Shown here: positions 19,875-64,000 of the stretch, one piece after another | How positions within the stretch are numbered: position 1 is the stretch's first letter | Layout: every line of letters starts with the position of its first letter | DNA from: an uncultured Candidatus Saccharibacteria bacterium | GTDB lineage: Bacteria; Patescibacteriota; Minisyncoccia; Phycocordibacterales; 2-02-FULL-43-11 | Assembly (NCBI GenBank): GCA_964348785.1 | Contig: CAYGDO010000003.1 | Coordinates: 57,631 to 121,630, forward strand | Direction of reading: 5' to 3' | DNA length: 64,000 nucleotides | Program-made: the position numbers and the translations under genes | The notes under the pieces: generated by a model | Told to the model about the DNA's origin: nothing | The model's database searches: none | What the model saw: the letters and a program-made list of their open reading frames with translations, nothing else

Positions 19875-20418
19875 CATAAGTTGAAGATAATTTAAGTGTA
19901 ATAGAAAAATCATTCTCAGTAGATTTGGCAAAATTAGAAACAGGAACATCAACTCCAGAAAAAGTCATGTTTGATTTTAAAATGGCTGAAAATTGTCTCA
20001 AGTCTTCTCTGGAATCAGCAGTCCCACTAATATACAAAGTGTTTTCTTTCTCGCCTTTAGAAAAAGATATATTGGTAATTGAAATACCTCTCGGTTTACC
20101 GTTAAGCAACTCAGGTAAAATTTTAGACAAATAAGACCTCCCTTCCAGATTTTTCTTAGCTGAGTCAATCTGTTTTTTAGTCAAAGAAACAGAACTCTCA
20201 AGATTTTTATAATCAATTGAAGCTGGTTTATTTTTTAAATCATCCAATTGCTTACTGACACCTCGGTGTTCAATGAAAACCAAAAACATTCTAGGGGCTA
20301 AAGCTATGACGCAAGCACCGAAACTTAAAGAAAAAATGATAAGGGCAATATTAATAACACGAAACTTCCGTTCCTTTTTTAATCCAATCCTATCTTTTTC
20401 TGTTAAAAGATTAACCAT
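19867..20418 (-). CDS. pilN: Type IV pilus assembly protein PilN-like
   Basis: Cytoplasmic N-terminus, a single TM helix (RVINIALIIFSLSFGACVIAL) and a periplasmic domain. Located between pilM and pilO. Confidence 0.5.
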   Translation of the reverse strand: MVNLLTEKDRIGLKKERKFRVINIALIIFSLSFGACVIALAPRMFLVFIEHRGVSKQLDDLKNKPASIDYKNLESSVSLTKKQIDSAKKNLEGRSYLSKILPELLNGKPRGISITNISFSKGEKENTLYISGTADSREDLRQFSAILKSNMTFSGVDVPVSNFAKSTENDFSITLKLSSTYGQ

Positions 20419-20421
20419 AAA

Positions 20422-21501
20422 TTAATTTATTGTAAGGCCAACAGCCCCAGCATAATCCAAAGAATCTTTATAATTTATAGGCGGTATATAGTCCTCAAGA
20501 GAAAAAACGTTTCGCCAGACATTGGCCACCTCTGTTTTTATGCCCGAAACACCAGAGATATATTCATCGACAGCGGGTAAAATGGTATCCTTGCCACACA
20601 AAATTATTTTCTCTATAGGGCTAGATGTGCCCATCAAAGATGCACTGTGAGTTTTCCAATAAGTAATAAGTTTTACTATCTCCTCTTTTAAAGGATCGAG
20701 TTCATTCATAATTTCCATAAACAAAGACATATTTTGTTTACCGCTGCCCAATATATCATCTTTGATTTTATCAACTTTCGTAGAATCAACTTTAAACTTT
20801 TGAGCAATAATCATATTGGAAGTCGATGACCCGACAGAAACAGTTGATGAAAAAAACACATTACCTTTGTTAACAATGGAGAAACCAGTTTTTAACTCAC
20901 CAAAATTCATTATTAAAAATGTTCTTTTGTCACCAAAAGGAGTAACGGCTTTGGCGACCGCCTGACTAGAAATCTCAAAACGAAGCGGTTGAAAACCTGC
21001 ATTAATGGCAACTTCAGAATACGTGTCAGACAATTTAAAAGGCACTAGCGATACCACAACATCAATATGATCACTTCCCTCCTCAGAACCAATTATTGAA
21101 TAATCAAAAACTGCTTCTTTTAAAGGCACGGGAACATTTTCTTCTATTCTAAAACTAATTGCTTCCCTAATTTCTTCATCTCTTACTTTAGGAACCTGCA
21201 TTTTAAACAAATAAGCCCTCTCTTCTGGAAGAGATAAACTTATAAAATCAAAAGTGGTCTTTGCTTTGATTTTAGCAAGAACATCTGACACCGCTTTTTT
21301 ATCATTGATAATACCCCCAGAAATGGCACCGGGTGGAATAACTTCTGTTCCAAAGTCTTTGATTCTTAAACCTTTAACTTGATCTTCAAAAACAACAAAA
21401 CGAGCTGATGAATCAGAAATATCAACCCCAACAGACTTCATTTGAAGATATTTTGGAGGTGGAAAAAAACCATCTAAATATTGGCAAATATTTTTAGACA
21501 T
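20422..21501 (-). CDS. pilM: Type IV pilus assembly ATPase-fold protein PilM (actin/FtsA-like)
   Basis: VGVDISDSSARFVVFE… and LCGKDTILPAVDEY…GAVGLTI, the actin-like fold found in PilM/FtsA. Confidence 0.65.
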   Translation of the reverse strand: MSKNICQYLDGFFPPPKYLQMKSVGVDISDSSARFVVFEDQVKGLRIKDFGTEVIPPGAISGGIINDKKAVSDVLAKIKAKTTFDFISLSLPEERAYLFKMQVPKVRDEEIREAISFRIEENVPVPLKEAVFDYSIIGSEEGSDHIDVVVSLVPFKLSDTYSEVAINAGFQPLRFEISSQAVAKAVTPFGDKRTFLIMNFGELKTGFSIVNKGNVFFSSTVSVGSSTSNMIIAQKFKVDSTKVDKIKDDILGSGKQNMSLFMEIMNELDPLKEEIVKLITYWKTHSASLMGTSSPIEKIILCGKDTILPAVDEYISGVSGIKTEVANVWRNVFSLEDYIPPINYKDSLDYAGAVGLTIN

Positions 21502-28178: not shown

Positions 28179-28534
28179 TTCACAAAAAAGCACCGAGAGC
28201 GGTGCTCGAAGAAAAAAGGGAGGGCTAGCTGGCCTCAGCGGAGATTTGTTGCGCCTCATCAAGCTTAACCCATCCAACTTGGACCAGATACTGGAGGACA
28301 TCAATCCCCTTGCGACACGCCTCAGCGATCGTATCTTCGACCTGTTTACGCCAAGGGCGAACCGAAAGTGCAGGGCAAACTCTCCACAGAATAGTTGGAT
28401 TGAAACCATTCATACAGTCTTTCCGCACCCCAACAGAAGGAGTGCTTTACCAAATTAAATGTTACGCCTATTTTCACAAAATACAAATAAAAAGTGGCGG
28501 GATTTCTCCTGCCACCTAACCAGACACCGAAGCC

Positions 28535-28870
28535 TTACTTCTTCTTTTTGCCTTGCCCAGTCTTCCCCCGCCACGAACGATCCCGCCAGATGACGAGACT
28601 GTTCCAAGTGATCCTGACCGGAGAAATCCCGGCTCCGAGAGTAATTTTCAGAAAATCCGTGCGAATTGAGAAGCCCAATCCCGCATCCTCCAGGATCCCA
28701 ACGATCTCATTGAATTCCGGAGGATTAACTCCTTGGGCTTCATAATCCTCGAGGACGCCCATGATAACCCTGCGCAGAATTTCAGACCTGCTCGGCCTGC
28801 CTCCGTTTACTTTTCTAACTGATTTACCCATAAACTGTTGCCTGTCTGACGGGTTTTGAACGCTTCGCAC
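28535..28870 (-). CDS. Hypothetical basic protein inside GC island 1; weak resemblance to phage small-terminase/HTH-like proteins
   Basis: …GGRPSRSEILRRVIMGVLEDYEAQGVNPPEFNEIVGILEDAG… The coding frame is uncertain in GC-rich DNA. Confidence 0.25.
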   Translation of the reverse strand: MRSVQNPSDRQQFMGKSVRKVNGGRPSRSEILRRVIMGVLEDYEAQGVNPPEFNEIVGILEDAGLGFSIRTDFLKITLGAGISPVRITWNSLVIWRDRSWRGKTGQGKKKK

Positions 28871-28960
28871 CTGCGAATTAGTTCGTTACTTTAATATAAA
28901 AAATAGATTTTGTCAAATAAAAATACTCAATAAAAAATCCCCAGCCGAAACCGAGGAAAT

Positions 28961-29359
28961 CTAACTTCCGCACTCCCTATCAACCTGGAGTGGTAAATAA
29001 GGCTGGATAGAACAACGCGTGGGCCTACGGTTAAGGACGAAACTTGAAGACATAAGGCGGTTAAGGGCTAGACGAGCGACCCGAAGTCCGGCCCAGCCGG
29101 CCCACGAAGCCAGCAACACCAATGTCACCATCTCTGGCGACACGCTAATCGCCAGCGATTCCCTGGCGAAATACCCCGCCCCACTCCCAAGCATCCAAGA
29201 TGGAATGTGCCCCCACCCCACCAAATCCGAAAAGTGAACCAATGAGGGTTCAAAAAACACCAAACCCAAAAACCGATTCTGTTCCTCCCAACCGTAAAAG
29301 TCATTGGAAGTGAGAAACACGAAGTACAACACCGATAGAACTACGAGCGTTCTTTTCAT
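28961..29359 (-). CDS. Hypothetical secreted/membrane protein at the edge of GC island 1
   Basis: Signal peptide MKRTLVVLSVLYFVFLTS encoded in AT-rich DNA, followed by a GC-rich body. The N-terminus resembles that of the 37849-38823 protein. Confidence 0.3.
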   Translation of the reverse strand: MKRTLVVLSVLYFVFLTSNDFYGWEEQNRFLGLVFFEPSLVHFSDLVGWGHIPSWMLGSGAGYFARESLAISVSPEMVTLVLLASWAGWAGLRVARLALNRLMSSSFVLNRRPTRCSIQPYLPLQVDRECGS

Positions 29360-29446
29360 GGTGATTATTTCCTGACCAACTTATACCACTAAAATTAATA
29401 AACTGTCAATATCGAAAAACCAGCCTAAATAAGCGATATTAAGCAA

Positions 29447-38941: not shown

Positions 38942-40615
38942 ATGGTAACTTTTGATGAAGACAAATCGCGTTTAAAAATAGCTGAAATAAAGGAACAAGA
39001 AGAGGAAGGACTGCTCCGAGAAATGGCTGATAATTTAGGTTTGCCATTTACTACAGTTTTATCAAACGCCATAGAAATTGATGCCTTAAATTTTGTAAAA
39101 GAAGAAGAAGCCAGAAAAATCCAATGTATCCCCTTCAAACTAGATGGCAAGGTAATATCAATCGCAGCAAGATGGCCAGAAAATGAAGAATTTTTGAAAA
39201 TTGTAGAACGCATAAAAGCTATGGGCTACAGTGTTGAAATTAGCGTGACGTCAGAAAAAATTCTAGAACGTGCATTTGAAGCATACAAAAATCTGTCTTT
39301 GAGTATAGCCTCAAAAGCTGGAACAGTTGATATAACAGCAGAAGCTCTAAATGAATACGTAACAAAAGTAACTTCGGTTGCTGACATACAAAAAATCCTA
39401 GCTGAAAATAAAGAAAAAAAGTTTATAAACACTTCTCATACTTTAGAAATAATCTTAGCTGGTGCAATTTCCACCAAAGCTTCTGACATACATTTAGAAG
39501 CAGGAGAACAAGATGCGAGACTAAGATATAGATTGGACGGTATGCTCTATGACATTTTTTCTTTTGACCATAAAACATTCCATTCCATCTTGTCTCGTAT
39601 TAAATTGCTTTCCGGTCTGAAACTCAACATAAAAAGCGAGGCTCAAGACGGACGTTTTGCGATAGCAATCGGCGATGGAGCAATTGAAATCAGAACCTCT
39701 ATTGTGCCTGGCGGTTTTGGAGAATCTTCCGTTCTAAGAATATTGAATCCAAAATCAATATCCGTTCCTCTTGAAGATTTAGGTTTTAACAAAAAACTTC
39801 TTGGGATTATTTCTGACTTAATTTCACGCCCACAAGGTATGATTTTAACGACCGGTCCAACAGGAAGCGGAAAAACAACAACACTTTATGCTTGTCTAAA
39901 AAAAGTTTACGAACCATCACTTAAAATTTTAACTATTGAAGATCCTATAGAATACCGTTTGGGAGGTATCGTCCAAACGCAAGTTGATGAGAAAAAAGGT
40001 TACGGTTTTATGCTTGGTTTACGCTCAGCTCTTAGACAAGACCCAGACATAATAATGGTCGGAGAAATAAGAGATGAAGAAACTGCACGAACAGCAATTG
40101 ATGCCGCCTTAACCGGCCACTTAGTCTTTTCCACTCTTCATACAAATAACGCCGCTGGTGCCTTCACTCGTCTTATTGATTTAAAAGTAAATCCAAAAGT
40201 CATAACCTCTGCCCTATCAGCATCTCTGGCCCAAAGACTTATAAGAAAACTTTGTCCAAACTGTAGAAAAGAAGTCACGTTAGAAGGTAAAGATAAAGAG
40301 TCTATAGAAAAAATTGTTGCAGGAATGCCATACAAAGATGAAATCACAAATACTACTAAAATGTGGGTGCCTGCTGGTTGCGAAAAATGTTCTGGCATTG
40401 GTTACAAAGGCAGAATCGGAGTTTATGAAGCAATTCTTTCAAGCGGTGAAATTGAAAAAGTGGTTGAAGCCAATCCAAGTGAAAGAGAAATCCAAAAAGT
40501 GGCCCGCGCGCAAGGCATATACAACATGGCAGAAGATGGGGTAGCAAAAGTCTTACAAGGAATTACATCTTTAGACGAACTAAAACGCGTTGTCGATATT
40601 GAAAACACAAATTAA
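38942..40615 (+). CDS. pilB: Type IV pilus/type II secretion assembly ATPase (PilB/GspE family)
   Basis: N-terminal GSPII_E_N-like domain; Walker A GPTGSGKTTTLYA; Asp box; Walker B IMVGEIRD; His box; a C-terminal tetracysteine. Confidence 0.85.
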   Translation: MVTFDEDKSRLKIAEIKEQEEEGLLREMADNLGLPFTTVLSNAIEIDALNFVKEEEARKIQCIPFKLDGKVISIAARWPENEEFLKIVERIKAMGYSVEISVTSEKILERAFEAYKNLSLSIASKAGTVDITAEALNEYVTKVTSVADIQKILAENKEKKFINTSHTLEIILAGAISTKASDIHLEAGEQDARLRYRLDGMLYDIFSFDHKTFHSILSRIKLLSGLKLNIKSEAQDGRFAIAIGDGAIEIRTSIVPGGFGESSVLRILNPKSISVPLEDLGFNKKLLGIISDLISRPQGMILTTGPTGSGKTTTLYACLKKVYEPSLKILTIEDPIEYRLGGIVQTQVDEKKGYGFMLGLRSALRQDPDIIMVGEIRDEETARTAIDAALTGHLVFSTLHTNNAAGAFTRLIDLKVNPKVITSALSASLAQRLIRKLCPNCRKEVTLEGKDKESIEKIVAGMPYKDEITNTTKMWVPAGCEKCSGIGYKGRIGVYEAILSSGEIEKVVEANPSEREIQKVARAQGIYNMAEDGVAKVLQGITSLDELKRVVDIENTN

Positions 40616-52317: not shown

Positions 52318-52323
52318 AAGTTT

Positions 52324-52366
52324 AAAAATCCCCTCCGACGTAACCCGTCGGAGGGGATTTTTATTG
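52324..52366. terminator. Strong bidirectional terminator between jag and the T4SS-like block
   Basis: aaaaaTCCCCTCCGACGtaacCCGTCGGAGGGGAttttt. Confidence 0.65.
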
Positions 52367-52401: not shown

Positions 52402-53652
52402 TTATTCAACAATTTGGAGTGTGTAAAGTTTTAAGTTATTTTTATTCAAAAAAGTTAAAAATTTCTCATTTGAGCTCAAAGACATTTTATAGGCATCAAC
52501 ATCTTCTCCGGCATCGTTACTTAAATTGGTTAAAAATACAGTTTCTCCAGTTGATATATTTGTCTTCCACATCTCATCCTTAAATGATTTAGTTCCTAAA
52601 TACCAATCTTCTGGGTAATCCCCCGTTGGTATGGTTTCTGGTACAGCGCAAAATAGTGTAGTTTTTTCAATTTGAGACCATACACATTTTTCTGGTAAGG
52701 TATTAAATCTAAATGGAAAAGATTGGTTTGTTTCTATGTTTAATATATAGCTATCAAAACTATTTTTATTAGATTCAGAATGCAATACTCGTTTTAGATC
52801 AGAGCTATAAAGAGTGGTTAATCCTTTTTTATCAGATAGGACTAATTTTTCTTCCCCAGTTTTTAAGTTTACAGTTTGTGATAGACCATCAATGTCTTTA
52901 GCCGGTTTAGAAGAAATTATTAAGTAATTTTGTTCTGGCCAATCTATTAACCAATCATTTAGAGGTGAGCTGAAAATTTCTAATTTTTGTTGCAGAGAAA
53001 GATTGCTGGTAATTATAGAGCTTCCAATTTCGCTTTGGTTTATATATGCAATTTGAGAATTGTTTGGAGAAAATATTACGTCCCCTACCGTTGCGTTGAG
53101 AAACTGAGTTTGTAATTCACCATTACCTCCTGTTTTGTCTTTTACACTACCCAAAAAGGTTTGCACTTTTTCTTGGTCTCTTAGGTATTGTCCTACTAGC
53201 TGATCGCCGTTTTTTGTCCAGTAAGCATTATATATTTGAGGTATTGTATTGGTCGTTAACCTTTGAGGCCTTATGTTTTTAGCTTCTGTTTCGTAAGCAT
53301 TACCCTTTGCTCTTTCAATAAATCTAGTGTAATCCTTACCTTCTTTGTTAAATGTGACTCCTCCTGATGTTGGTGTTTCCGAGACTAAACGAAGTTGCGG
53401 TTTAAATGCTCCCCCAGTATTGTTGCCATTATTATTACCATTGTCACCCGCTGTCCCGCCGGTTGTGCCGTTATTGTTGTTATTGTTGCCTTGGTTACCA
53501 TTGTTATTATCAATATCTCCAGAAATTGGCAGATTTGGATCTGTATTTATATTTGTTCCTCTAAAAAACAAAAAATAAGCAAGTACACCAAGTCCGATTA
53601 AGACAAAAATGATGATTATGGGAATTATTTTTTTTAGTTTATCGTTTTGCAT
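52402..53652 (-). CDS. Membrane-anchored extracellular protein with an N/G-rich low-complexity linker and a beta-propeller-like (TolB/WD40-like) body; last gene of the T4SS-like block
   Basis: N-terminal TM helix, then …NNNGNQGNNNNNNGTTGGTAGDNGNNNGNNTGG, then repetitive beta-strand-rich segments. Confidence 0.35.
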   Translation of the reverse strand: MQNDKLKKIIPIIIIFVLIGLGVLAYFLFFRGTNINTDPNLPISGDIDNNNGNQGNNNNNNGTTGGTAGDNGNNNGNNTGGAFKPQLRLVSETPTSGGVTFNKEGKDYTRFIERAKGNAYETEAKNIRPQRLTTNTIPQIYNAYWTKNGDQLVGQYLRDQEKVQTFLGSVKDKTGGNGELQTQFLNATVGDVIFSPNNSQIAYINQSEIGSSIITSNLSLQQKLEIFSSPLNDWLIDWPEQNYLIISSKPAKDIDGLSQTVNLKTGEEKLVLSDKKGLTTLYSSDLKRVLHSESNKNSFDSYILNIETNQSFPFRFNTLPEKCVWSQIEKTTLFCAVPETIPTGDYPEDWYLGTKSFKDEMWKTNISTGETVFLTNLSNDAGEDVDAYKMSLSSNEKFLTFLNKNNLKLYTLQIVE

Positions 53653-53655
53653 TTT

Positions 53656-54840
53656 TTATGGACTACAATGAACTCTGGCTGGGTTAGGTATGTAAGTTAT
53701 TATTGGAGCTTGATACATGCCAGTACCTGGACTGGTCTGATAAGTTGTTGCGGGCACTTGGACACATATGGCCGTTTTTGCTGCATCAGCGGCCGCCCTC
53801 ATTTCCGCCTCTCTATTTCTCACTTGTTCTGCTGGTAAATTTAATCTGTTTATTGTTGCCATTCTGTCTCTATATTCATTTTCTACAGCATCAAGAGCGT
53901 TTTTCACATCGTTGGGGTTTGTTGGGCGTATTCTTCCGTCAGCTACTTGAATTTTAAAATTTTCTGGTTTTTGGGCCATATCTATTTTAAATCCTTCTTT
54001 GCTTGATTCGGCTTGGGCAAGATTTCTTATTTCTGTAGCTTGTCGGTCTAGACTGGCTAAAGCATTTTCAATATTATTTTCTCCTGTTTTGGCTAGTATT
54101 TCTTGCTCTACAGCAGGGAGTCTTTCAAGTGCCGCTCGGATTTCTTCATCAGTCTTTCCGGCGAAGTATGTATCTCTTAGGGTTTGTAGTCTGGTAACTT
54201 CTTCTTCGGTCATTCCGGTTGTACCTTGAGCATTTATTATTCTTTGAATTTCACGCATATCTCTATAACTGTTTGCTTTTTGCTGGAGAGCGTTAGCTTC
54301 GGCGCGCATTTCTCCAGTTGTTTGTCTTAATCTGTCTAAAGCAGCGAGGCTTCTATTTACAGCCCGGTCAAAATCTCTTTGAGCGGTCCTAGACATCATC
54401 ATTAATTCAGTAAGATCGGTACTTTTGAGGGATTCATTGACCACTTTTAAATCAACTAGTTGCGGGTTTATGGTATTTAAAATTATATATGAAGCAAAAA
54501 TAATCAATAATCCGCCAAGCGCCATTTTGATGGTGTGTTTTCCTTCTTCTTTATTTGATATGGCGTCAGTTGAAACATAACTGAATCCACCCATTACAAT
54601 TTGAAGAACAGCTAAAACGGCCGCTGAGGCCACTATTAATTTATAGAGATTATTTATATAAACAGCCAAGTTGTTGCTTCCTGTTTTGGTGATGCATTGC
54701 CCAGTTGCTCCTACTGTGCATGTCCCCGGTAATGGTGCCAACTCTACGTAGTCTAAAGCTAATGTTGTGGTCATAATGCCAAAAAATAAACAAATAGGTA
54801 TTAGTATCAAAATTATTTTTTTGGCTAATGCTTTTTTCAT
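53656..54840 (-). CDS. Secreted/membrane protein whose N-terminus has a VirB2/TrbC-pilin-like hydrophobic hairpin, followed by a long coiled-coil
   Basis: Signal peptide, two hydrophobic helices (LIVASAAVLAVLQIVMGGF and MALGGLLIIFASYIILN), then an ~250-aa heptad-rich region. Confidence 0.3.
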   Translation of the reverse strand: MKKALAKKIILILIPICLFFGIMTTTLALDYVELAPLPGTCTVGATGQCITKTGSNNLAVYINNLYKLIVASAAVLAVLQIVMGGFSYVSTDAISNKEEGKHTIKMALGGLLIIFASYIILNTINPQLVDLKVVNESLKSTDLTELMMMSRTAQRDFDRAVNRSLAALDRLRQTTGEMRAEANALQQKANSYRDMREIQRIINAQGTTGMTEEEVTRLQTLRDTYFAGKTDEEIRAALERLPAVEQEILAKTGENNIENALASLDRQATEIRNLAQAESSKEGFKIDMAQKPENFKIQVADGRIRPTNPNDVKNALDAVENEYRDRMATINRLNLPAEQVRNREAEMRAAADAAKTAICVQVPATTYQTSPGTGMYQAPIITYIPNPARVHCSP

Positions 54841-55847
54841 TATCTTGAAAGGGTGTTAAGTTTTATAAAAATAATTTTTAATGAATTATTTGCTGACTGA
54901 AAATAGTCAAGGTCATTTGAAAGTTGTAACGATAAATTTGCTTGGCCATTTTTACCACTAGTGTTTCTTAAAATTATAGCACTATCAGAATTTTCAATAC
55001 TTTTATCGGATAAGACCCATTTATACTTTAGAGTAGATAAATTTTTGTTATTTACACCAAAAAATACTGGCATAGCTGATATCACGGCCTCTTCTTTATC
55101 AAATGTAAAACTTCCTTCAAGGGCTTTGTTTGTTAATAGACCATATTCTGGATCTTCTTCATAAAACACAACTTTTGATTCTATTGGCTCTATTGAGACC
55201 GTTTTACTAGCGAACGCCCCATTATCCGGGTAGCTAGCTTCTACAGTGATTTCTATAGTTTTTGGAAGGTCGTTGTCTGATTTGTAAGCAATATTGTTTT
55301 TTCCATAACCTGATAAATTATTTAAATATTGATTACCATCTTTCCATTTAAATATTATTTTACTATCCGGCACCTTTTTTCCAGAAGCATCAAGAATGTT
55401 TGGTATCGCAACTAGTTTTAAAGATCCTTGAAAAGGCAATCTTGGTTTACCTTTGTAAAATGGTGGTGTATAGGAATTAGCCTCATAGAGTATGTCCACT
55501 TTTGCTGGAGAAAATATAATTCTTTTTGAAAAAATTTGACCATTTTTTTGTCCAATGACCTCTAAGGTATTTTTTGACCCCAACTTGCCAGATTTGAAAG
55601 AGTATATTCTTAACCCTTTACCACTTTGGACATTTTCTCCGTTTAAAATCCAAGATAATTCAAGTGTATTTATGTCTACTCCGTAAGCGTTTAAAGTGGC
55701 CACGACTTGTTCTTCTGGTCCTGGATTATCAGGTGTTATGGTAAGTTCGACGCCATCTAAGCCAGTAAATTGAGCATTAACTGTATGAGTCAAGAAAAAC
55801 AACAGAAAAAAAATAACATAGGAGATATTGAAAAACTTTCTAAACAT
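54840..55847 (-). CDS. Secreted beta-rich protein (hypothetical)
   Basis: Signal peptide MFRKFFNISYVIFFLLFFLTHTVNA. Confidence 0.35.
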   Translation of the reverse strand: MFRKFFNISYVIFFLLFFLTHTVNAQFTGLDGVELTITPDNPGPEEQVVATLNAYGVDINTLELSWILNGENVQSGKGLRIYSFKSGKLGSKNTLEVIGQKNGQIFSKRIIFSPAKVDILYEANSYTPPFYKGKPRLPFQGSLKLVAIPNILDASGKKVPDSKIIFKWKDGNQYLNNLSGYGKNNIAYKSDNDLPKTIEITVEASYPDNGAFASKTVSIEPIESKVVFYEEDPEYGLLTNKALEGSFTFDKEEAVISAMPVFFGVNNKNLSTLKYKWVLSDKSIENSDSAIILRNTSGKNGQANLSLQLSNDLDYFQSANNSLKIIFIKLNTLSR

Positions 55848-55888
55848 AGATAAATTTTAACATATTTTTTAAAAGTCACTTAGCATAC

Positions 55889-57145
55889 TTATGCTTTTTT
55901 GCTTGCTATTTTTTGTATAGCTTCATTTGCCTTTTCTCCTGCTCCTGGAATTTTAGAGATTACTTTTGATCCATCGGTTATAAGCCATGCATAGGCAATA
56001 TCAAAAGACCAAGCAGGCATTATGCCTAAGGATACGAAATCTACTAAAAATCCAAGAGCTAAGCTAATGGCTAGTTTTCTGTTCATCATCTTATTAAACC
56101 AAAAGAAACTAAATAGTATTAGACCGATTAAGACATCAGCAAGCATATTAACCGCTAGGGCTATTACAGTGACACCAAGAGCATCTTGTACAAAATCAAT
56201 TATTACAGCTCCGGCGCCTAGTAATATCCAGGTCGTAACATTTAATTTTTTCGGTGTTTTATTTTGGGATAAAACCTTTTGAATATTTTTTAGGTTTTGG
56301 CCCAAACTGTTTTTTTGAGTATTTACAGGTGGTTCCCCGTTGGTGTCACCCGATTCATTTTTTTGGTCGCCTGTGGGTTTACCCTCTTCCCCTTTTAGTT
56401 TCGGAGGTAAATTTGAATTTTTAGTATTAGGAGTTTCAGCGGTATCGTAAGATTCACCGTTTTTCCCTTGAACAGTATCGTTTAGTTTCGGAGGCTGATT
56501 GGCCTCGCTGAAACTATTATTTGGTTTTTGTTCGCGATCTCCTTTGCTTTGTGGAGATTCTTCTGTGTCAAACGATTCACCGTTTGGTCCTTGTACGGAA
56601 TCATCTAATTTTGGAGGCTGATTGATTGTGCCGAAACTACTATTTTGTTTTTGTTCTTCATCGAAAGTTTGCTGTGTGTTATTTCGATTTTCTTCTTTAT
56701 TTTCTTTTTGTGTTGAGATACCACCCCCTCCTTTATTTTCATCATTTCCTGTTTCCTCTCTATAAGGATCTTTTTTTTTGTTATTGTTACCATTCGGAGT
56801 TATATATTTTGGAGCTTCTTTTTTTTCGTTACCATTATTCAAATTGTTTTTTTCTTGAGGTTGAAGATTGGAGTCTTGTCCTTTTTTGTCTTGATTTAAT
56901 CCTTTTAGTCTTGTGTTTACTATCTGTTCTGCCAATTGATCGGCTGATAAATTTATGTTTAAACCAGAATAAAAATTCATAGTTTCATCTATGATTCTTG
57001 ACATGTCAGCGTCCCATTTTTTACTGATTTGCTCTAGTTTCGGATTAATTAACTCTGCCCTTTTGGTTACTGATTTTAGTATTTTCTCTTTCATGGCCTG
57101 TTGATTTTTTGCCGGAGAAAGATTTGTTTTTTCTGCCATTTTCAA
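55889..57145 (-). CDS. Protein with a long N/Q/K-rich low-complexity region containing internal ~35-aa repeats and a C-terminal 3-TM membrane anchor (possibly VirB2/VirB3-like)
   Basis: Repeats …NSSFGTINQPPKLDDSVQGPNGESFDTEESP… occur twice. C-terminal TM helices LLGAGAVIIDFV…, VIALAVNMLADVLIGLILF, LAISLALGFLVDFVSLGI. Confidence 0.35.
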   Translation of the reverse strand: MKMAEKTNLSPAKNQQAMKEKILKSVTKRAELINPKLEQISKKWDADMSRIIDETMNFYSGLNINLSADQLAEQIVNTRLKGLNQDKKGQDSNLQPQEKNNLNNGNEKKEAPKYITPNGNNNKKKDPYREETGNDENKGGGGISTQKENKEENRNNTQQTFDEEQKQNSSFGTINQPPKLDDSVQGPNGESFDTEESPQSKGDREQKPNNSFSEANQPPKLNDTVQGKNGESYDTAETPNTKNSNLPPKLKGEEGKPTGDQKNESGDTNGEPPVNTQKNSLGQNLKNIQKVLSQNKTPKKLNVTTWILLGAGAVIIDFVQDALGVTVIALAVNMLADVLIGLILFSFFWFNKMMNRKLAISLALGFLVDFVSLGIMPAWSFDIAYAWLITDGSKVISKIPGAGEKANEAIQKIASKKA

Positions 57146-57431
57146 ATTATAACTCTTATTTGGATAAAATAAGAGTTATAAGATTTTTATTACGACGAGT
57201 GAGCCCGCCTGCCGGCGAGGCAGGGAGCGGGTGGAAAATTCTTACCTGTCTGCGTGTTACGCACGAGCAGATTTTACACAGCGTTCAAGCGAAGTTGTAT
57301 AAAAAGGTTTAATGCCTCCCCTCTTTGGAGCGGGAAAGTGCTAGCTTGTGAGTTTAATATGGGTGTGGCGCTTGCCCTTCGGTCAATGCCCTTTATTTAG
57401 ATAAATTAAGAGTTGAAAAGGCTTCAAAAAT

Positions 57432-59252
57432 TTATAATCCAGAAGATCTAAATTCTTCTTTGGCTTTCTTAATGTTTAATAGTTGTGATGGATCTGAGGT
57501 TATTATTTGATCTTCAGTATAAGAAGCAATAATTTTAATGGCTACGTGTTTTAATCCTACAAAGAATATCCCCTCTCCTACCGATGACTCTAACAAAAGA
57601 TATTTTTCTTCATCTGTTAGATGAAAGATTTCTTGAATTCTATCCATTACTGACGGTGATTGTTTTAGAAGGATTTGCATTGAAGAGTTGGTGATTATGG
57701 GTGTGCCGTAAGGTGATTTCAAGAAATCATCAACGTCCTGAGTAATAGTTGATACCCCTAGATAATATTTTCTCCCTCTTTTAACCATTCTCGTTAAAAA
57801 AGAAGCCGTATCGTCTGATTTCATCATCCACCACGCCTCATCAATGACAAGCAGTCTCTTTTTAAGATTTTTTCTAATGGCAGACCAGATATGGTGGGTA
57901 ATTAAAAAGGTAGCAACAGATTTTAATTCATCCTCCATATCTCTAATAGAAAAGACTATGAATTTACTGTTGATATCAACGTTGGACGGGTTGTTTAGGA
58001 ACCCGCTCCATGTGCCTTTTGTGTATTTACTCAATCTTTCTACCAGAGATTTTGAACCCTCCATACCGCTTAATACTGACTCAAAATCAGATAGTAATGG
58101 TGGCGGAATATTAGTGAAATCATTTTCTGGCGTTATGTCTTTTGAGGAATAGGTTTCGCTTATGGCCTGATCAATTATGGCATCTTCTTCTGGGGTAAGT
58201 CCTCCCAACATTATCCTAAATAGACCAACTAAATTTATAATATGCGATCTTAAAATATCAGAAGGAAGCTCGTCTTCTTTAGGAGGTGGTAAATCAAACG
58301 GATTTATATGGTGTTCTGAATTAAGAGAAATGTTAAAGTATTTTCCTCCTACTGATTCAGCCAATTGAGAGTACTCGTTTTCTGGGTCTATGACCATCAC
58401 ATCAACGTCAAACATCAAAGATCGAAGAATTTCTAATTTGCATGTATATGACTTTCCCGAACCTGATTGGGCGAAAGTTACGGAATTGTAGTTTGGTAGT
58501 GAAAATCTATCAAAGATAACCAAGCTGGCGTTATGTCTATTTATTCCGTATAAAATTCCCTTATTGTCAGTTAAATCGAAAGATACAAAAGGAAAAATAC
58601 TTGAAAGAGGTGCAGAATTTAATTTATTATGAACTAAAAGTTTGTCTTCGCATAAAGGCATAACACTTAAAAACCCTTGTTCTTGTTGGAAAAGAGCCGG
58701 TTTAATAAAAATCATTTTTGCTTCAAGAATGGATTTGACTTCAGACTCAACTTTGTTTATTTCTTCTTCGGTGTCGCCGTAAATTGTTAAATAGAGACCA
58801 ACGTCAAACATTTTTTCTTGAGCTTGCATTAGATTATCTCTAAGGCTTTCTAAATCTTGGTAAGCGGTATCTAACATGGGATCTCTAACGAACCCTTTTT
58901 TCTCTCTTTCGGCAATTTGGCTTTGAACCTGAGCCACTTTTTGTTGAAAGGCCTTTAGGACCTTTGCTGTATCGGTTGGATGGACAAAGATGGCGATATC
59001 AAAGACTTTATCCAAATTTATTATAGGAGAAAACCAGCCCTCGTTTAAAAATCTTGGATATGAGATTACAAAATATGTTCTAGCAATTTTGTCTCCCAAG
59101 TTTAGACTTTTAGGACTTATTTTAAGTGCTGCAGGAGCGATAATATCACTTGTTTTAACAGAATCTGATTGATAAAACTGGCCAGGTATTGTTGCCCCGT
59201 TTTCGTTTGTTTTATCTGTTTTTTTTGATTTTAAAAAGTCAAAAATTCCCAT
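57432..59252 (-). CDS. virB4: VirB4/TrbE/CagE-family conjugal-transfer ATPase, C-terminal ATPase portion
   Basis: Walker A FAQSGSGKSYTCK; Walker B RLLVIDEAWWMM; …GVSTITQDVDDF…QS…, the VirB4 C-terminal signature. Confidence 0.65.
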   Translation of the reverse strand: MGIFDFLKSKKTDKTNENGATIPGQFYQSDSVKTSDIIAPAALKISPKSLNLGDKIARTYFVISYPRFLNEGWFSPIINLDKVFDIAIFVHPTDTAKVLKAFQQKVAQVQSQIAEREKKGFVRDPMLDTAYQDLESLRDNLMQAQEKMFDVGLYLTIYGDTEEEINKVESEVKSILEAKMIFIKPALFQQEQGFLSVMPLCEDKLLVHNKLNSAPLSSIFPFVSFDLTDNKGILYGINRHNASLVIFDRFSLPNYNSVTFAQSGSGKSYTCKLEILRSLMFDVDVMVIDPENEYSQLAESVGGKYFNISLNSEHHINPFDLPPPKEDELPSDILRSHIINLVGLFRIMLGGLTPEEDAIIDQAISETYSSKDITPENDFTNIPPPLLSDFESVLSGMEGSKSLVERLSKYTKGTWSGFLNNPSNVDINSKFIVFSIRDMEDELKSVATFLITHHIWSAIRKNLKKRLLVIDEAWWMMKSDDTASFLTRMVKRGRKYYLGVSTITQDVDDFLKSPYGTPIITNSSMQILLKQSPSVMDRIQEIFHLTDEEKYLLLESSVGEGIFFVGLKHVAIKIIASYTEDQIITSDPSQLLNIKKAKEEFRSSGL

Positions 59253-59253
59253 T

Positions 59254-59916
59254 TTATTTTTGTTCTATTATAGGGCTATGATTTTCCCCAGGGTTAAACA
59301 ATTTATAATAAAATTCCACTAACTCTTCTGTTCCCAGCCTTACTGATCTGATACCACAACGTAATAGTGCTTGTTCGGCTATGGCCACTCTCTGTTCGAG
59401 TTGCACTTTATTTTCTTCAAAAGTCATTTTTTCCTGTTCTTCTTTATTGTTACTTGTTGCTTTTTTTGATCCGCCCTGGATTATATCTGTAAATGACGTT
59501 GAAACACCGTGACTGCCCCCTGAAATTAAAGTTGAGGCGTAAGGTATAACTACAAAAAATCTTTTACTCATTATATTGGAGTTTTGTGTGAACTGTTGTA
59601 TGAAATTAATATATTCTTTTGTTTGGATTTTTAGAAGGTCGTTTAACTGTTCTTTGTACCTTTGTTCAAGTTGGGCTATATATGGCTTTATATCCATTCT
59701 TCTTGATTCAATAAATATTTCTACTGAAAAATCTAAAACATTCAAAAAATTTTGAAACTGGAGTATGGTGGCTTGTTGTATATCTGCTGATTGTAAATCA
59801 AAATTGATAGATGAAGCCATCAAAATTACTCTAAGTGAATTATCTTTGAGAATTAATGTCCCATCTCTTATTTCTTTTATTGGTAAAAAATCTTGTGTTG
59901 CTTTTCCTGAAGACAT
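59254..59916 (-). CDS. VirB4 N-terminal domain encoded as a separate ORF (split gene or frameshift)
   Basis: …FLPIKEIRDGTLILKDNSLRVILMASSINFDLQSADIQQATILQFQNFLNVLDFSVEIFIESRRMD…, the pattern of the TrbE/VirB4 N-terminal domain. It ends 1 nt before the ATPase ORF start. Confidence 0.5.
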   Translation of the reverse strand: MSSGKATQDFLPIKEIRDGTLILKDNSLRVILMASSINFDLQSADIQQATILQFQNFLNVLDFSVEIFIESRRMDIKPYIAQLEQRYKEQLNDLLKIQTKEYINFIQQFTQNSNIMSKRFFVVIPYASTLISGGSHGVSTSFTDIIQGGSKKATSNNKEEQEKMTFEENKVQLEQRVAIAEQALLRCGIRSVRLGTEELVEFYYKLFNPGENHSPIIEQK

Positions 59917-60024
59917 ATTTAAAAGGTGTTTATGTCTTATATTATAACCTAAAACAGTTTTAATAGATTATTTAATTGGTAATTTTGTGGAAAATTAGCA
60001 ATTAAATAAAAACAAGGATTTTTC

Positions 60025-60432
60025 TTATTTTTTACTTTGTCCAGTTAAGTCTAATAGATTGTCTAAATTGTTTACCTTACCCTCTTTTATATTTTTAGGG
60101 GAAACCATTTTTGGTATGTTTGAAGGGATGTTTATGTTTACGTTTTGTGGTTGATCAACTTTTTTCCAAAGATAAATTTTTGAGGAAATAATATATTTTA
60201 ATCCAGCTTCTAGTGTGAAGATAAAAGGTTTGCCATTTATTTTAACGAAGGCTAATGAGACAGATAAAAGCACCATTGGAGCAATTACAATGATAGCAAA
60301 AACTAAAGGTAAAAATTTGTAGGCAATATATGATAAAGCAACTCCTCCGGTTACATATACAAATTGTTTGGCCGTGAAAGGACCAAAGATTGTATCTTCT
60401 ACGCCAATAAATTGTGGTACTTGGAATCTCAT
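60025..60432 (-). CDS. VirB3-like small membrane protein (Gram-positive PrgI/TcpE type)
   Basis: 135 aa with two TM helices (YVTGGVALSYIAYKFLPLVF and AIIVIAPMVLLSVSLAFV), positioned just upstream of the VirB4-like ORFs. Confidence 0.4.
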   Translation of the reverse strand: MRFQVPQFIGVEDTIFGPFTAKQFVYVTGGVALSYIAYKFLPLVFAIIVIAPMVLLSVSLAFVKINGKPFIFTLEAGLKYIISSKIYLWKKVDQPQNVNINIPSNIPKMVSPKNIKEGKVNNLDNLLDLTGQSKK

Positions 60433-60433
60433 T

Positions 60434-61396
60434 TTATTCTTCTAGGGCTTCGCGATAAGGGTCTACATTGTAATTTTTTCTTTCCATAGGTATATGAACT
60501 CTTTTTGTCATTTTGTCCTCGGTAGGGTTTGATAGATTATCCGCTTTCGGTATTTCTATTTTTGGTTTAGGCACATTTTCAATTTTTACTTCTGGTTTTG
60601 GTGGCGTAGGAACTGTGGTTTTATTATTTTCAATAGGGGTCGGAACTGAATTTATCGATTCCCCAACTTTTATTTGTCTTATTTGTGGAATATTACCACT
60701 GCCAAATTTTCCCCTTGTTCCTGATAAAAATGGAAATTCTTCTTTTATGGCAGGCGCTTTAACTGCTGGTAATTCCTCACCTGATTTTTTGGCTATATCT
60801 CTTTGCATTGTTCTTACTATAGGCACTTCTCTTTGCACTTCTTCAGTGGGTAAGTTTTCTGGGATTTTGGGTTCAATTTTTTCTGGGACTGGCGGACTGT
60901 TTTTTTGAGTACTGGTTGAAAATTTTGCTGGAGGCGGGTTTTCTAGGTCTCTTAATACTTGTTCTCTTGAGATTTTTTCGTATATGGTATCGCTTATATT
61001 ACTAGGCGAGTTTGTTTGAATCGGTGAAGTGGGAGTTGCCGGTACTACTGGTTCGTGTAGATTTGGTAGTAAATCAGATTTTCTACCATACAAATCACCT
61101 TTTATTCTGTCTATGATTTCTGTTGTTATAAAAGCCGAAATTGCCCCCATATTTTTCTGATTATCTTCATCTAAAATTTCTAATAGAGCCGTTTCCGTTG
61201 ATCCAAGAGTTTGATCTCCATTTAGAATTTTATAAACAAGTTCACAAATATTACTAATCTCATCTATTGTTAATTCAAGTTTGTCTCCCAAGTCGTATAT
61301 AAATAAAACATAATCTTTCGTTAGATTAACATTTTTTTCTTTATACATTTTCTGCAATAAAGAAGTTAGTTGTTGTTGTTTATCGTAATTATCCAT
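60434..61396 (-). CDS. Pro-rich hypothetical protein of the T4SS-like block
   Basis: 320 aa, with a structured N-terminal ~110 aa and then a P/T/K/E-rich extended region. Confidence 0.35.
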   Translation of the reverse strand: MDNYDKQQQLTSLLQKMYKEKNVNLTKDYVLFIYDLGDKLELTIDEISNICELVYKILNGDQTLGSTETALLEILDEDNQKNMGAISAFITTEIIDRIKGDLYGRKSDLLPNLHEPVVPATPTSPIQTNSPSNISDTIYEKISREQVLRDLENPPPAKFSTSTQKNSPPVPEKIEPKIPENLPTEEVQREVPIVRTMQRDIAKKSGEELPAVKAPAIKEEFPFLSGTRGKFGSGNIPQIRQIKVGESINSVPTPIENNKTTVPTPPKPEVKIENVPKPKIEIPKADNLSNPTEDKMTKRVHIPMERKNYNVDPYREALEE

Positions 61397-61405
61397 TGTT
61401 TTATT

Positions 61406-63997
61406 TTATTCATCACTATACCTTTTTCTTTTTGCTCCTGATGCTGTAGGTGTGTTCATTCGAGTCACTAGATCTTGTAATGCAGTATCAAGTTCCGCTG
61501 GATCATTGAAAGCGGAAGATTTCACCCCTACTAATTTTGATTCCAAATCTTCAAAAATTTTTCTTAATTCTGGTGCTATCGCTCCTTCTTGTTTGAACAT
61601 TTTTCCTTCTTTTTCATTCATAATCCAAATTAAAGTATCAAAGTTTTCTTTGCTCATTTGCCTTCCTTCTTTTCCGCTCGTCGCCATAAATTTTACTTGA
61701 TCTTCCATAGCTCCCAAGAAATGATTCATTAATATTTTTATTTCTCCAATGTCTTTATCGCCGAATTTTCTTGTTATACCTCTATCAAAGAACCTTGAGG
61801 CATCAGAATTTTGCCACATATAGCCTCTCATTTTGGCAACCTCTTCTTGTGTTTTTCCGGAAATACCTTCTTGAATGTAACCCAATCCAATTTTTCTTAG
61901 AGCTTTTTGTTCGGCGTTCATATTTTGGATATATTCAGCGTAAGACCCGTCTTCCATTTTTTCTCCTACCGCACTTCTTATGGTGGTCGATTTTTCTTTT
62001 TCCCATTCTTCCTCTGTCATGTTTTGAAGGAAATCTTTAAATTCTTTTGTAGATGCTTTTGCCGAATCAACCAATCCTAAATCAACATAAATTTTTTTCA
62101 TTGTTTCGATGCTTGGTTTGTTGACTCCCAATCCTGCAGCAAGAACCTCACCATCTCCGACTATTTGGCTTTTTCTTTCTCTCATTTTGTCTCTATCCAC
62201 TGAAGCTATGTTTTCACTGTTTCTTGCATAGTCTATGGCCCCTTGTCTAACAGTGCTACAAAATTCTGGGTCTTGAGCTAGCTCTTCTGGATGAACTTTG
62301 TATATCCAGTCCATTTCTTTTGGACTCATTGCTCTTAGCCAGTTTCTTACTGTTGGGTCTACATCTCTAATACTTGGTTTTTTTGGCTCTTCAGGTATTG
62401 CTATGCCCGCCTTTTTTGCCGTATCAATTGCTAATTTAACATCAACTTCATCATCTATATTTATTTTCCTTCCCAATACTTTTTCGGCCTCTTCGAATAC
62501 TTTTGCCATACCTTCAATGTATTCACCCTGTTTTTTTTCAAATTCTTCCATCGGTCCTTTTAGTCTGCCAAAAGCGTCTTTGACGTGAGCGTATCTGGCT
62601 TGTAACGATTTGTCTTTTTCTTCGTCTGTTAATCTATCACCTCCTTGGACCGCGCTTATTTGAGCCTGTGATGCATTTCTCATTATTACTTCATTAAACA
62701 AAGTTTTTTTGGCCATATGAGAAAAAGCTTTTGGTGACAATTTAACCAAAATTCTCTGTATGTCGCCATCTGCTTTTTCGAGAGCCTTACTTTTATTTGA
62801 TTGGGCTTTTTTAACTTCTTTTTGAGCTTTTTTGAGTTCTTCTTTTGCTTTATCAATATCAACTGTTGAGGCACCAGTATTTTGAAGTCTTTTAACCTCA
62901 TCTTTAGCTGAAAGAGCTTTGTCTTTAGCCTTCTGAACTTCTGCGTTTTGAGTTTGCTCAACTGTTGTTCTGGTTTGTGCTAAATGCTCAGCCTCTTCCT
63001 CATGATGAATTTCTTCTCTTCTTGCTCTTTCTTCAAGGGCCTCTTTGTGGACTTCTTCTGCTGTATGGTGTCCGCCGAAAGTGGCCTTTTCTGCCAAGTA
63101 TCCAGTTGTCATTAATCTGACTTTTTTGCCCAAACCTGTATTTCCAAATTTAGACTCAGAAAACTTTTCATTGAGAGCTCTTATTCCGCCATATCTTACA
63201 GCATTTCTACCAATAAAGCCGGTCGCCATACCTCTCGCATGCTCTGCCCAATGCATAGCTGTCGTTGCCCCTTCTCCAGCGGAATGCTCAGCAATGTGAA
63301 GACAGGCAATCATAAGACCTATGATTATTACGAAATTAAAGAAAACACCTACTGCTCCCAAGAGCGTCCCTGTATCAGTTCCTGCTCCGGAGCTTATAAT
63401 TTCAAGAGATTGTGACACAGTCTTATTAACTGTGATTCCTACTAAGCTATTTTCACTTTGAATAATTTTTCCGACAATATAAGCCATGCCCATAAAGATG
63501 GGAGCAAAAAATGCTTGATGGAAAAGTTTGTGCCACCAATCGTGAGTATAATTGCCCATATGAGGTACGACCCAAGCAATGAAAGCAAAAGGAGAAGTAA
63601 TCATTAATATTACTAAAGATAGAGTCCTGTATACCATTAATATAGATCCTGCAATAAAAACCCAGCAAGCCACTAAAATCATTACTGATCCAAATGCTCC
63701 TATCATAATGATTTTTGTTAGACCTAAAGTTCTAAATCCTTCAGGATCGTAAATTCCTTGCATTCTTAGGCCTTGCATAAAAACGCCGGACAGAGTCCCG
63801 TCTCCTCCATCGGTAATCAAGTCATAGAAATGGAGAGCTATGACGTTGGCTACGTCAATAACAGCTTTTGTAATAAACAAACTGAAGTTTATAAGAAGAG
63901 CCGCCACAACAATTTTCATTATAGAGCCCATGGTTGAGCCGTGGTGTAGCCCTAAAATTGTAGACAAACCCACCCATAGGACTAAAAAAATGAACAC
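61406..63997 (-). CDS. VirB6/TrbL-like polytopic membrane protein with a large C-terminal hydrophilic coiled-coil domain. The N-terminus probably runs off the window end.
   Basis: At least 6 TM helices within the first ~250 aa (…IMIGAFGSVMILVACWVFIAGSILMVY…SPFAFIAWVVPHMG…), then ~600 aa that are hydrophilic and coiled-coil-rich. Confidence 0.45.
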   Translation of the reverse strand: MFIFLVLWVGLSTILGLHHGSTMGSIMKIVVAALLINFSLFITKAVIDVANVIALHFYDLITDGGDGTLSGVFMQGLRMQGIYDPEGFRTLGLTKIIMIGAFGSVMILVACWVFIAGSILMVYRTLSLVILMITSPFAFIAWVVPHMGNYTHDWWHKLFHQAFFAPIFMGMAYIVGKIIQSENSLVGITVNKTVSQSLEIISSGAGTDTGTLLGAVGVFFNFVIIIGLMIACLHIAEHSAGEGATTAMHWAEHARGMATGFIGRNAVRYGGIRALNEKFSESKFGNTGLGKKVRLMTTGYLAEKATFGGHHTAEEVHKEALEERARREEIHHEEEAEHLAQTRTTVEQTQNAEVQKAKDKALSAKDEVKRLQNTGASTVDIDKAKEELKKAQKEVKKAQSNKSKALEKADGDIQRILVKLSPKAFSHMAKKTLFNEVIMRNASQAQISAVQGGDRLTDEEKDKSLQARYAHVKDAFGRLKGPMEEFEKKQGEYIEGMAKVFEEAEKVLGRKINIDDEVDVKLAIDTAKKAGIAIPEEPKKPSIRDVDPTVRNWLRAMSPKEMDWIYKVHPEELAQDPEFCSTVRQGAIDYARNSENIASVDRDKMRERKSQIVGDGEVLAAGLGVNKPSIETMKKIYVDLGLVDSAKASTKEFKDFLQNMTEEEWEKEKSTTIRSAVGEKMEDGSYAEYIQNMNAEQKALRKIGLGYIQEGISGKTQEEVAKMRGYMWQNSDASRFFDRGITRKFGDKDIGEIKILMNHFLGAMEDQVKFMATSGKEGRQMSKENFDTLIWIMNEKEGKMFKQEGAIAPELRKIFEDLESKLVGVKSSAFNDPAELDTALQDLVTRMNTPTASGAKRKRYSDE

Positions 63998-64000
63998 TAT

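Follow-up and report, generated by a model that had tools for sequence, protein, structure and literature searches.

A vertically inherited, origin-proximal type IV secretion locus of the Paceibacteria with a probable role in host contact

The 64,000-nucleotide (nt) stretch of metagenomic DNA analysed here (contig CAYGDO010000003.1, positions 57,631 to 121,630; hereafter the window) carries, from position 52402 to its end at 64000, nine co-directional open reading frames (ORFs) on the minus strand, all of them present where the original prediction had placed them. In our reading this is probably a core type IV secretion system (T4SS) of a Paceibacteria genome, inherited vertically and used for host contact and macromolecule exchange and not for plasmid conjugation. 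Systems of this kind have already been published (2023-2025), and the locus is a well-preserved new example, not a new machine. In a Saccharibacteria species, the Patescibacteria T4SS has been shown to be essential for epibiotic growth, as few other machines have. What it adds is a clean and complete 11-gene Paceibacteria example, fold-level assignments for partners usually left hypothetical together with a three-transmembrane (3-TM) accessory protein, and the observation that the C-terminal extension of the pilin module is polymorphic. With these assignments, fewer proteins come into question as targets for cryo-electron tomography, AlphaFold-multimer and genetics on the connection between candidate phyla radiation (CPR) bacteria and their hosts.

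Extent and core components of the locus

The window cuts the locus. An exact match of the 606-amino-acid (aa) protein led to the source contig in an ENA metagenome (ERZ27247837, k141_857056, 198 kb), which supplied the sequence beyond the window and on which the locus continues past position 64000. Two extra co-directional genes, encoding proteins of 813 and 319 aa and spaced by 9-13 nt, precede the VirB6-like gene and belong to the conserved cluster, giving a complete unit of 11 genes and ~15.4 kb. The locus of ~11.6 kb described originally is thus real but incomplete. All of its ORFs are intact. Most successive genes are separated by -1 to 41 nt; two gaps are larger, 108 nt (PrgI-like to TrsD-like gene) and 292 nt (VirB4 to the next gene), so the tight packing that had been claimed holds for most genes but is not uniform. 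The features within the window are collected in Table 1.

Table 1. Coordinates of the locus features and of the adjoining terminator in the window
Position	Strand	Feature	Family
52323..52363	.	Bidirectional terminator hairpin between convergent jag and the last T4SS gene	
52402..53652	-	Surface protein, 416 aa: N-terminal membrane anchor, N/G-rich low-complexity linker, TolB-like beta-propeller	
53656..54840	-	VirB2-type pilin-module protein, 394 aa	PF18895
54840..55847	-	Secreted protein, 335 aa, three tandem Ig-like domains	
55889..57139	-	Membrane protein, 416 aa (418 aa from TTG at 57145): low-complexity region plus 3-TM module	
57146..57431	-	Structured intergenic spacer in the operon, 286 nt, more G+C than its surroundings	
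57432..59252	-	VirB4 ATPase, C-terminal two-thirds, 606 aa	conju_CD1110, P-loop_TraG
59254..59916	-	TrsD-like protein, 220 aa, free-standing homologue of the VirB4 N-terminal domain	
60025..60432	-	PrgI/VirB3-like two-TM protein, 135 aa	PF12666
60434..61396	-	Protein of 320 aa: conserved N-terminal helical domain plus Pro/Lys/Glu-rich tail	
61406..64000	-	Extended VirB6-like polytopic protein, 863 of 989 aa within the window	

The ATPase of the locus is a VirB4, as originally predicted. The 606-aa protein matches the NCBIfam model conju_CD1110 above its cutoff (E 6.3e-107; 358.7 bits against 325) and Pfam P-loop_TraG with E 1.5e-28, along with TraC-F, VirB4_CagE and other families, and both its Walker motifs are intact (A, GSGKS at 264; B, LLVIDEAW at 467). 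A better fit to HerA/FtsK-type ATPases had been named as the alternative; the match to the HerA-type family DUF87 reaches only E 4.7e-8, far behind the VirB4 families. We scanned species-representative genomes with this VirB4, which returned at least 554 relatives, and examined the best 80. All of these come from Paceibacteria/Parcubacteria-type metagenome-assembled genomes, including Nomura-, Taylor-, Kaiser- and Campbellbacteria and Paceibacterota, and share 71-78% identity with the query. With this identity and the FATA-type CD1110 model as best curated family serving as a proxy for clade placement, the locus would belong to the Patescibacteria VirB4 clade, derived from the monoderm machinery of mating-pair formation class FATA (MPF-FATA).

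The 606-aa protein covers profile positions 183-733 of 752 in the CD1110 VirB4 model. Directly beside it, a 220-aa ORF that the original prediction left undescribed matches the VirB4 N-terminal region (E 5e-9), with positions 2-119 of the same model and positions 101-233 of the Mycoplasma VirB4, as well as TrsD/TraD (E 3e-4) and the TraC-like Pfam family PF26593. Since the larger protein aligns only to the later part of the model and the adjoining protein covers its beginning, VirB4 is split into a TrsD-like N-domain protein and an ATPase protein, as in pGO1-type systems. A TrsD-like homologue is found in 79 of the 80 related loci. Two genes upstream of VirB4 lies the PrgI-like gene, with a homologue in 77 of the 80; its product, proposed earlier as a VirB3-like protein with two TM segments, matches PF12666 (PrgI) with E 7.3e-9 and 36.5 bits, above the gathering score of 27. 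The CD1110-type VirB4, TrsD and PrgI together bear out the earlier description of a minimal core of Gram-positive type.

The VirB6-like gene extends 375 nt beyond the window end, to a full length of 989 aa, and as a single sequence its product has no family match. We therefore built a profile of the membrane domain from 55 orthologues and compared it with all 177,635 distinct PDB sequences; the membrane domain alone was used because the full-length alignment was swamped by coiled-coil matches. The sole significant match was VirB6 (TrwI) of R388 (E 0.0012, 212 aligned residues), and Pfam TrbL/VirB6 was matched by six of the 55 orthologues, at best with 1.6e-4. The assignment as VirB6-like is marginal but consistent, and agrees with the VirB6/TrbL-like polytopic protein of the original prediction. 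Neither of the two outcomes that had been named as speaking against a T4SS, a closer fit of the ATPase to HerA/FtsK or no VirB6/TrbL fold in this protein, was borne out. Analysis of hydropathy and charge gives eight consensus membrane spans across the 55 orthologues, a lysine and arginine (K/R) density of 0.116 in the predicted inner loops versus 0.05 in the outer ones, and 12 K/R within the 86 residues that follow the last span. Because the inner loops and the C-terminal flank are rich in K/R, the hydrophilic, K/E-rich C-terminal domain of ~600 aa is more likely cytoplasmic than extracellular on these grounds, and the large extracellular domain that had been described for this protein is probably wrong.

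Next to this gene is that of the Pro-rich 320-aa protein, which has no hydrophobic segment on inspection of the sequence by eye and is probably cytoplasmic. Its tail contains 15% Pro, and jackhmmer finds its N-terminal ~110-200 aa in the positional orthologues of ~60 loci, duplicated in some. It had no family match in Pfam and NCBIfam searches.

To look for type IV coupling protein (T4CP), relaxase and VirB11 genes, we inspected the window ORFs of at least 340 aa, scanning those unrecognisable by sequence against Pfam, and followed the gene calls beyond the window. None turned up in the 18 kb upstream or the 52 kb downstream of the locus. This includes the window, for which the original prediction had already reported no VirD4, relaxase or VirB11 and where none occurs among the inspected ORFs, and the next 18 kb beyond position 64000, where the gene calls contain none either. 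Likewise, no locus protein matched a VirB9, VirB10 or TrbG family at E up to 1. We also weighed whether the ~650-aa ORF that related loci have upstream of ksgA might be a T4CP; on the source contig it is a UvrD helicase.

Conservation and published relatives

One gene order is common to nearly all of the 40 full-length Paceibacteria loci listed. It begins (after ksgA and a divergent gene) with the genes of the 319-aa and 813-aa proteins, followed by VirB6, the Pro-rich protein, PrgI, TrsD and VirB4, and continues with the optional 3-TM gene, the 335-aa protein, the pilin and the propeller into jag-yidC-rnpA and dnaA-dnaN; the synteny comparison suggested by the original prediction thus places the same order next to dnaA. 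Median identities in the same loci are 73% for VirB4, 54% for TrsD, 59% for DnaA, 44% for YidC and 43% for DnaN, the VirB4 value being somewhat inflated by the choice of loci by VirB4 similarity. Since order and position are fixed across species and the locus has the same G+C content as its flanks and the window at large, it belongs to the vertically inherited core and is no mobile element.

Downstream, the locus is followed by jag, yidC and rnpA, then dnaA and dnaN, and at this low-coordinate border the strong terminator proposed earlier is an 18-bp stem with nine GC pairs and a loop of 5, with T-runs and a terminator score on both strands. Upstream of the 319-aa gene are the divergent gene, of 434 aa, ksgA, uvrD, a LysM/Peptidase_M23 gene, a split ComM-like gene and the polynucleotide phosphorylase gene. 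The placement of the locus beside a putative oriC block stands on the dnaA-dnaN gene block and on the GC skew, which changes sign near 50 kb, and these two features are all that point to oriC. Enrichment of DnaA boxes was tried as further support and dropped, with 24 boxes found against 18 expected, which is not significant. The whole T4SS operon would be head-on to a replication fork leaving the dnaA/rnpA region, and its orientation relative to yidC-rnpA/dnaA is the same in the related loci listed.

As described by Quinonero-Coronel et al (2025, Microb Genom, PMC12102498), the Patescibacteria T4SS form a monophyletic VirB4 clade nested in MPF-FATA. Among the partners TrsD is found most often, with PrgI, VirB6 and pilins of PF18895/PF04956 besides; VirB8 and VirB1 occur rarely, relaxases hardly ever, and T4CPs are not linked, and in Paceibacteria and Microgenomatia the locus adjoins dnaA, dnaN, rnpA and ksgA. 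Against that account, the present locus shows no difference in kind: it combines a VirB4 nearest to MPF-FATA with TrsD, PrgI/VirB3, VirB6 and a PF18895/PF04956 pilin near virB4, lacks a linked relaxase or T4CP and lies beside the same four genes. Most genes neighbouring virB4 are left unassigned there, and the sections consulted make no mention of DUF4141, TolB-like, Ig-like or four-helix-bundle partners, or of long variable pilin extensions.

Epibiotic growth of Southlakia epibionticum ML1 requires its T4SS (SEML1_0006-0019; Wang et al, 2023, Cell, PMC10633639), and a possible pilus of the Saccharibacteria T4SS has been discussed in a 2025 review (PMC12857230). The two loci have in common their proximity to the origin, the order of an extended VirB6, PrgI, one gene and VirB4, PF18895 pilins, and the lack of a relaxase or coupling protein. 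They differ in that S. epibionticum alone has six short pilins in an array, an NTF2-like (VirB8-like) protein and peptidase/lysozyme genes, whereas the present locus has one long pilin-module gene and other surface proteins, and no NTF2-like protein was found in it.

More distant systems share parts of this set. With the monoderm MPF-FATA systems (Trs of pGO1/pSK41, CD1110 of C. difficile CTn2, Prg of pCF10) the locus has in common a CD1110-family VirB4, PrgI, a VirB6-like protein and the lack of VirB7/9/10, and with pGO1 a separate TrsD; those systems, however, possess a relaxase, T4CP, VirB1-type hydrolase, VirB8-like proteins and adhesins, lack VirB2 pilins and are carried on mobile elements. 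The pilus-assembly module of the diderm VirB/Trw systems (VirB2-VirB5-VirB6-VirB3-VirB4; MPF-T; R388, PDB 7o3v) resembles it in the fold family of the VirB2-type pilin and in a VirB6 membrane domain that can be aligned to TrwI. Unlike those systems, it has no VirB7-11, and its VirB6 and pilin carry C-terminal extensions of 600 and 264 aa, respectively.

Surface proteins, pilin module and proposed function

The original prediction left about half of the components without a recognisable family. This is true of single-sequence searches only; with orthologues taken from the related loci, most partners resolve at the fold level, and the set as a whole comprises a TolB-like, an Ig-like, a four-helix-bundle and a DUF4141-plus-lectin protein. 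The translated extracellular-module proteins show signal peptides or N-terminal anchors. For the propeller-like surface protein of the original prediction, the best 12 PDB matches of the orthologue profile are all TolB (E ~0.001); PD40 is matched by four and PG_binding_1 by two of 60 orthologues, among which C323 and C335 are invariant, and a homologue is present in 64 of the 80 loci. The predicted secreted beta protein turns out to contain three immunoglobulin (Ig)-like repeats, with invariant W66, W168 and W277 ~105 aa apart. Its orthologues give weak matches to BiPBP_C (10 of 58), Ig_3 and PKD_3, the family also matches phage Hoc/decoration proteins weakly, and 76 of the 80 loci have a homologue.

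In the 416/418-aa membrane protein, which found no family match in Pfam and NCBIfam searches, ~290 aa of N/K/E/Q-rich low-complexity sequence precede a conserved 3-TM module. By jackhmmer, these C-terminal 125 aa are homologous to small 3-TM proteins encoded at the same position, and such a homologue was found in 34 of the 38 related loci with a sizeable ORF there. Since ~30 of 76 loci leave a gap of <70 bp, with no room for the gene, it is accessory.

The two genes outside the window add further surface components. In MPF-T operons virB5 (trwJ) sits immediately upstream of virB6. The gene of the 813-aa protein, which is secreted and helical and combines DUF4141 with a lectin, lies in this same position just upstream of VirB6, and we regard the protein as a candidate VirB5-like tip or stalk; other members of its family carry F5/8-type-C, Ig and fn3 domains. 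The 319-aa protein has a TM helix and TSP3 calcium sites, and its structure model (predicted local distance difference test score, pLDDT, 88.8) is a four-helix bundle, which would make it a calcium-binding anchor. Position 64000 and beyond had been named as a place to look for a VirB8-like protein; we considered the 319-aa protein for this role and rejected it, the model having no NTF2-like fold.

The remaining component is the pilin-like, coiled-coil protein of the original prediction. It consists of a signal peptide, a two-TM T4SS_pilin domain (residues ~30-126) and a coiled-coil-like C-terminal extension of 264 aa. Alone it matches PF18895 with E 4.3e-5, and among its positional orthologues 58 of 59 match PF18895 and 10 of 59 match TrbC/VirB2. 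The gene is single-copy in 68 of 72 loci. The extension, in contrast, is hypervariable, ranging from 0 to ~340 aa across the positional orthologues, and in ~8 of the 59 it is a peptidoglycan enzyme (Peptidase_M15_4, YkuD, VanY, NlpC/P60, SLT_2, CHAP or Amidase_5); the order of pilin then enzyme within one ORF was confirmed in two cases, with the pilin domain ahead of the M15 peptidase. A near-invariant L-x-T-I-N-P motif falls exactly at the boundary of the pilin module. A word-indexed search with the 135-aa module retrieved only four proteins, and an exhaustive phmmer search used in its place gave 13,095 related cluster representatives. The closest 150 are mostly 290-410 aa long with the pilin domain N-terminal, several having 2-4 tandem modules, and 7 of 144 carry SLT, VanY, YkuD or NlpC/P60. 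Four relatives of the module (P0254, P0264, P0327 and P0368) have 3-4 tandem pilin domains per polypeptide of 600-900 aa, and resemble fusions of the pilin gene arrays described for Saccharimonadia and Microgenomatia.

In the mechanism that we propose, VirB4 and TrsD would dock as hexamers on a platform of PrgI and VirB6 and extract the pilin module from the membrane, and the module would form, across the cell wall, a surface filament or stalk. The DUF4141-plus-lectin protein would occupy the VirB5-like tip or stalk position, and together with the Ig-like, TolB-like and calcium-binding proteins might form a wall-spanning, host-binding outer part. Such a machine would serve contact and macromolecule exchange across the host envelope without plasmid conjugation. 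As in the literature, we infer host contact or uptake rather than conjugation. The original prediction of an uptake or host-contact apparatus, and not a self-transmissible element, is supported by the lack of a nearby relaxase or T4CP, its function staying an inference.

Several points weigh against this interpretation. A distant T4CP is possible, as the scan covers only the 18 kb upstream to 52 kb downstream of the locus, and T4CPs are found in most Patescibacteria genomes in the literature. The VirB6 assignment is statistically marginal, no VirB8-like fold was found at the locus and no dedicated VirB1 was found in the locus of this genome. A pilin with so long a C-terminal extension may fail to polymerise. 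Furthermore, the function of the Paceibacteria T4SS is extrapolated from one Saccharibacteria species.

VirB2 and TraA termini face outward, and TrbC/VirB2 propilins are processed C-terminally, as established for RP4 and Ti systems. Since the pilin extension is C-terminal to such a module, it is probably extracytoplasmic and might be displayed or released. We put forward, as a tentative idea, that the Paceibacteria pilin gene encodes a modular precursor of a pilin module and a polymorphic extracellular domain, which the T4SS displays or releases and which, with the VirB5-like DUF4141-lectin tip, forms a device for breaching the host wall. If true, this would give a concrete and testable mechanism by which CPR cells other than Saccharibacteria open a conduit into their hosts. 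The rival form of this idea, in which the VirB2-like module is mainly a membrane or filament carrier and its variable C-terminal domain (a cell-wall hydrolase, coiled coil or other) is shown to the host envelope or cleaved off against it, seems to us rather doubtful to the same degree. The range of extension lengths, the fused wall enzymes downstream of the pilin domain in positional orthologues and close representatives alike, the conserved boundary motif and the precedent of propilin processing all favour it. However, cleavage and surface exposure of the extension are hypothetical, most extensions, including the one in this window, lack a recognisable domain, and the hydrolase fusions could provide a membrane-tethered VirB1 function for remodelling of the cell's own wall.

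The lack of a nearby relaxase or coupling protein is equally a feature of the VirB4-driven DNA-import machines ComB of H. pylori and Ced of Sulfolobales, and the locus could by this token power the uptake of host or environmental DNA as a source of nucleotides and genes. CPR bacteria lack nucleotide synthesis (PMC10633639), and uvrD and a ComM-like gene are found 4-7 kb upstream. We consider this reading unlikely. The matches of VirB4 to CedB (1.6e-9) and CedD (1.5e-5) are weak and partial, spanning 45-75 residues around the P-loop and falling far below cutoffs (37 versus 700 bits for CedB); no homologue of the ComB VirB7-10 components was found, and no CedA-type homologue turned up, although no specific check was made with the CedA/A1/A2 models. 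The T4SS of S. epibionticum is essential whereas its comEC-dependent transformation is dispensable (PMC12857230), with which ComEC-independent import is still compatible, and the window contains separate genes for a type IV pilus, the mediator of competence in Saccharibacteria. Far less probable still is a self-transmissible or decaying integrative conjugative element inserted beside the origin. Its appeal is that the closest curated families (CD1110-type VirB4, TrsD, PrgI and TrbL) are conjugation proteins. Yet there is no integrase, relaxase or T4CP within 70 kb, every ORF is intact, and the published VirB4 tree (PMC12102498) shows vertical inheritance within classes; we reject the idea on composition identical to that of the flanks and on synteny, the position and order being the same in dozens of species-level genomes and VirB4 more conserved than DnaA.

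Spacer, neighbouring genes and other features of the window

The 286-nt spacer has a G+C content of 0.43, a minimum free energy of -76.5 kcal/mol and a folding z of -3.77 against shuffles, with a perfect 15-bp hairpin directly 5' of the next start codon. A known riboswitch or small RNA was considered and rejected, the spacer having no Rfam match and not being conserved in the other related loci. It could divide the operon in two, with one unit for the ATPase and channel and one for the surface proteins.

The 434-aa gene divergent from the first T4SS gene (L001 91-1395, minus strand) gives weak PG_binding_1 and TIG matches and encodes a Gly/Cys-rich C-terminus. At least 12 related loci have a homologue in this position, and the protein may serve the system as an accessory associated with the wall. 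The LysM-LysM-Peptidase_M23 gene ~4.5 kb upstream of the locus (L082 4530-5543, minus strand) encodes a possible VirB1-type wall hydrolase, a kind noted in PMC12102498. The ComM-like Mg-chelatase gene beside it (L082 2993-4527, plus strand) is split into ORFs of 93 and 398 aa.

Elsewhere in the window, a stretch of ~1.2 kb (28200-29400) reaches a G+C content of 0.38-0.59 in a genome of 0.35 and contains only short, dubious ORFs. Rfam gives no match to it up to E 0.1, and it may hold one or more undescribed structured RNAs. A 230-aa ORF at 15053-15745 (minus strand), with a weak, below-cutoff match to LAGLIDADG_3 (E 4.8e-4), could be the remnant of a homing endonuclease. The type IV pilus genes comprise a PilB-type T2SSE ATPase with an MshEN domain at 38942-40615 (plus strand; E 2.9e-113), the only ATPase of the T2SSE family among the large window ORFs, PilM at 20422-21501 (minus strand; E 6e-23), 18 kb from PilB, and two small membrane ORFs at the PilN/PilO position (19338-20418, minus strand). 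Type IV pilus and T4SS genes thus coexist in the window, as they do in Saccharibacteria.

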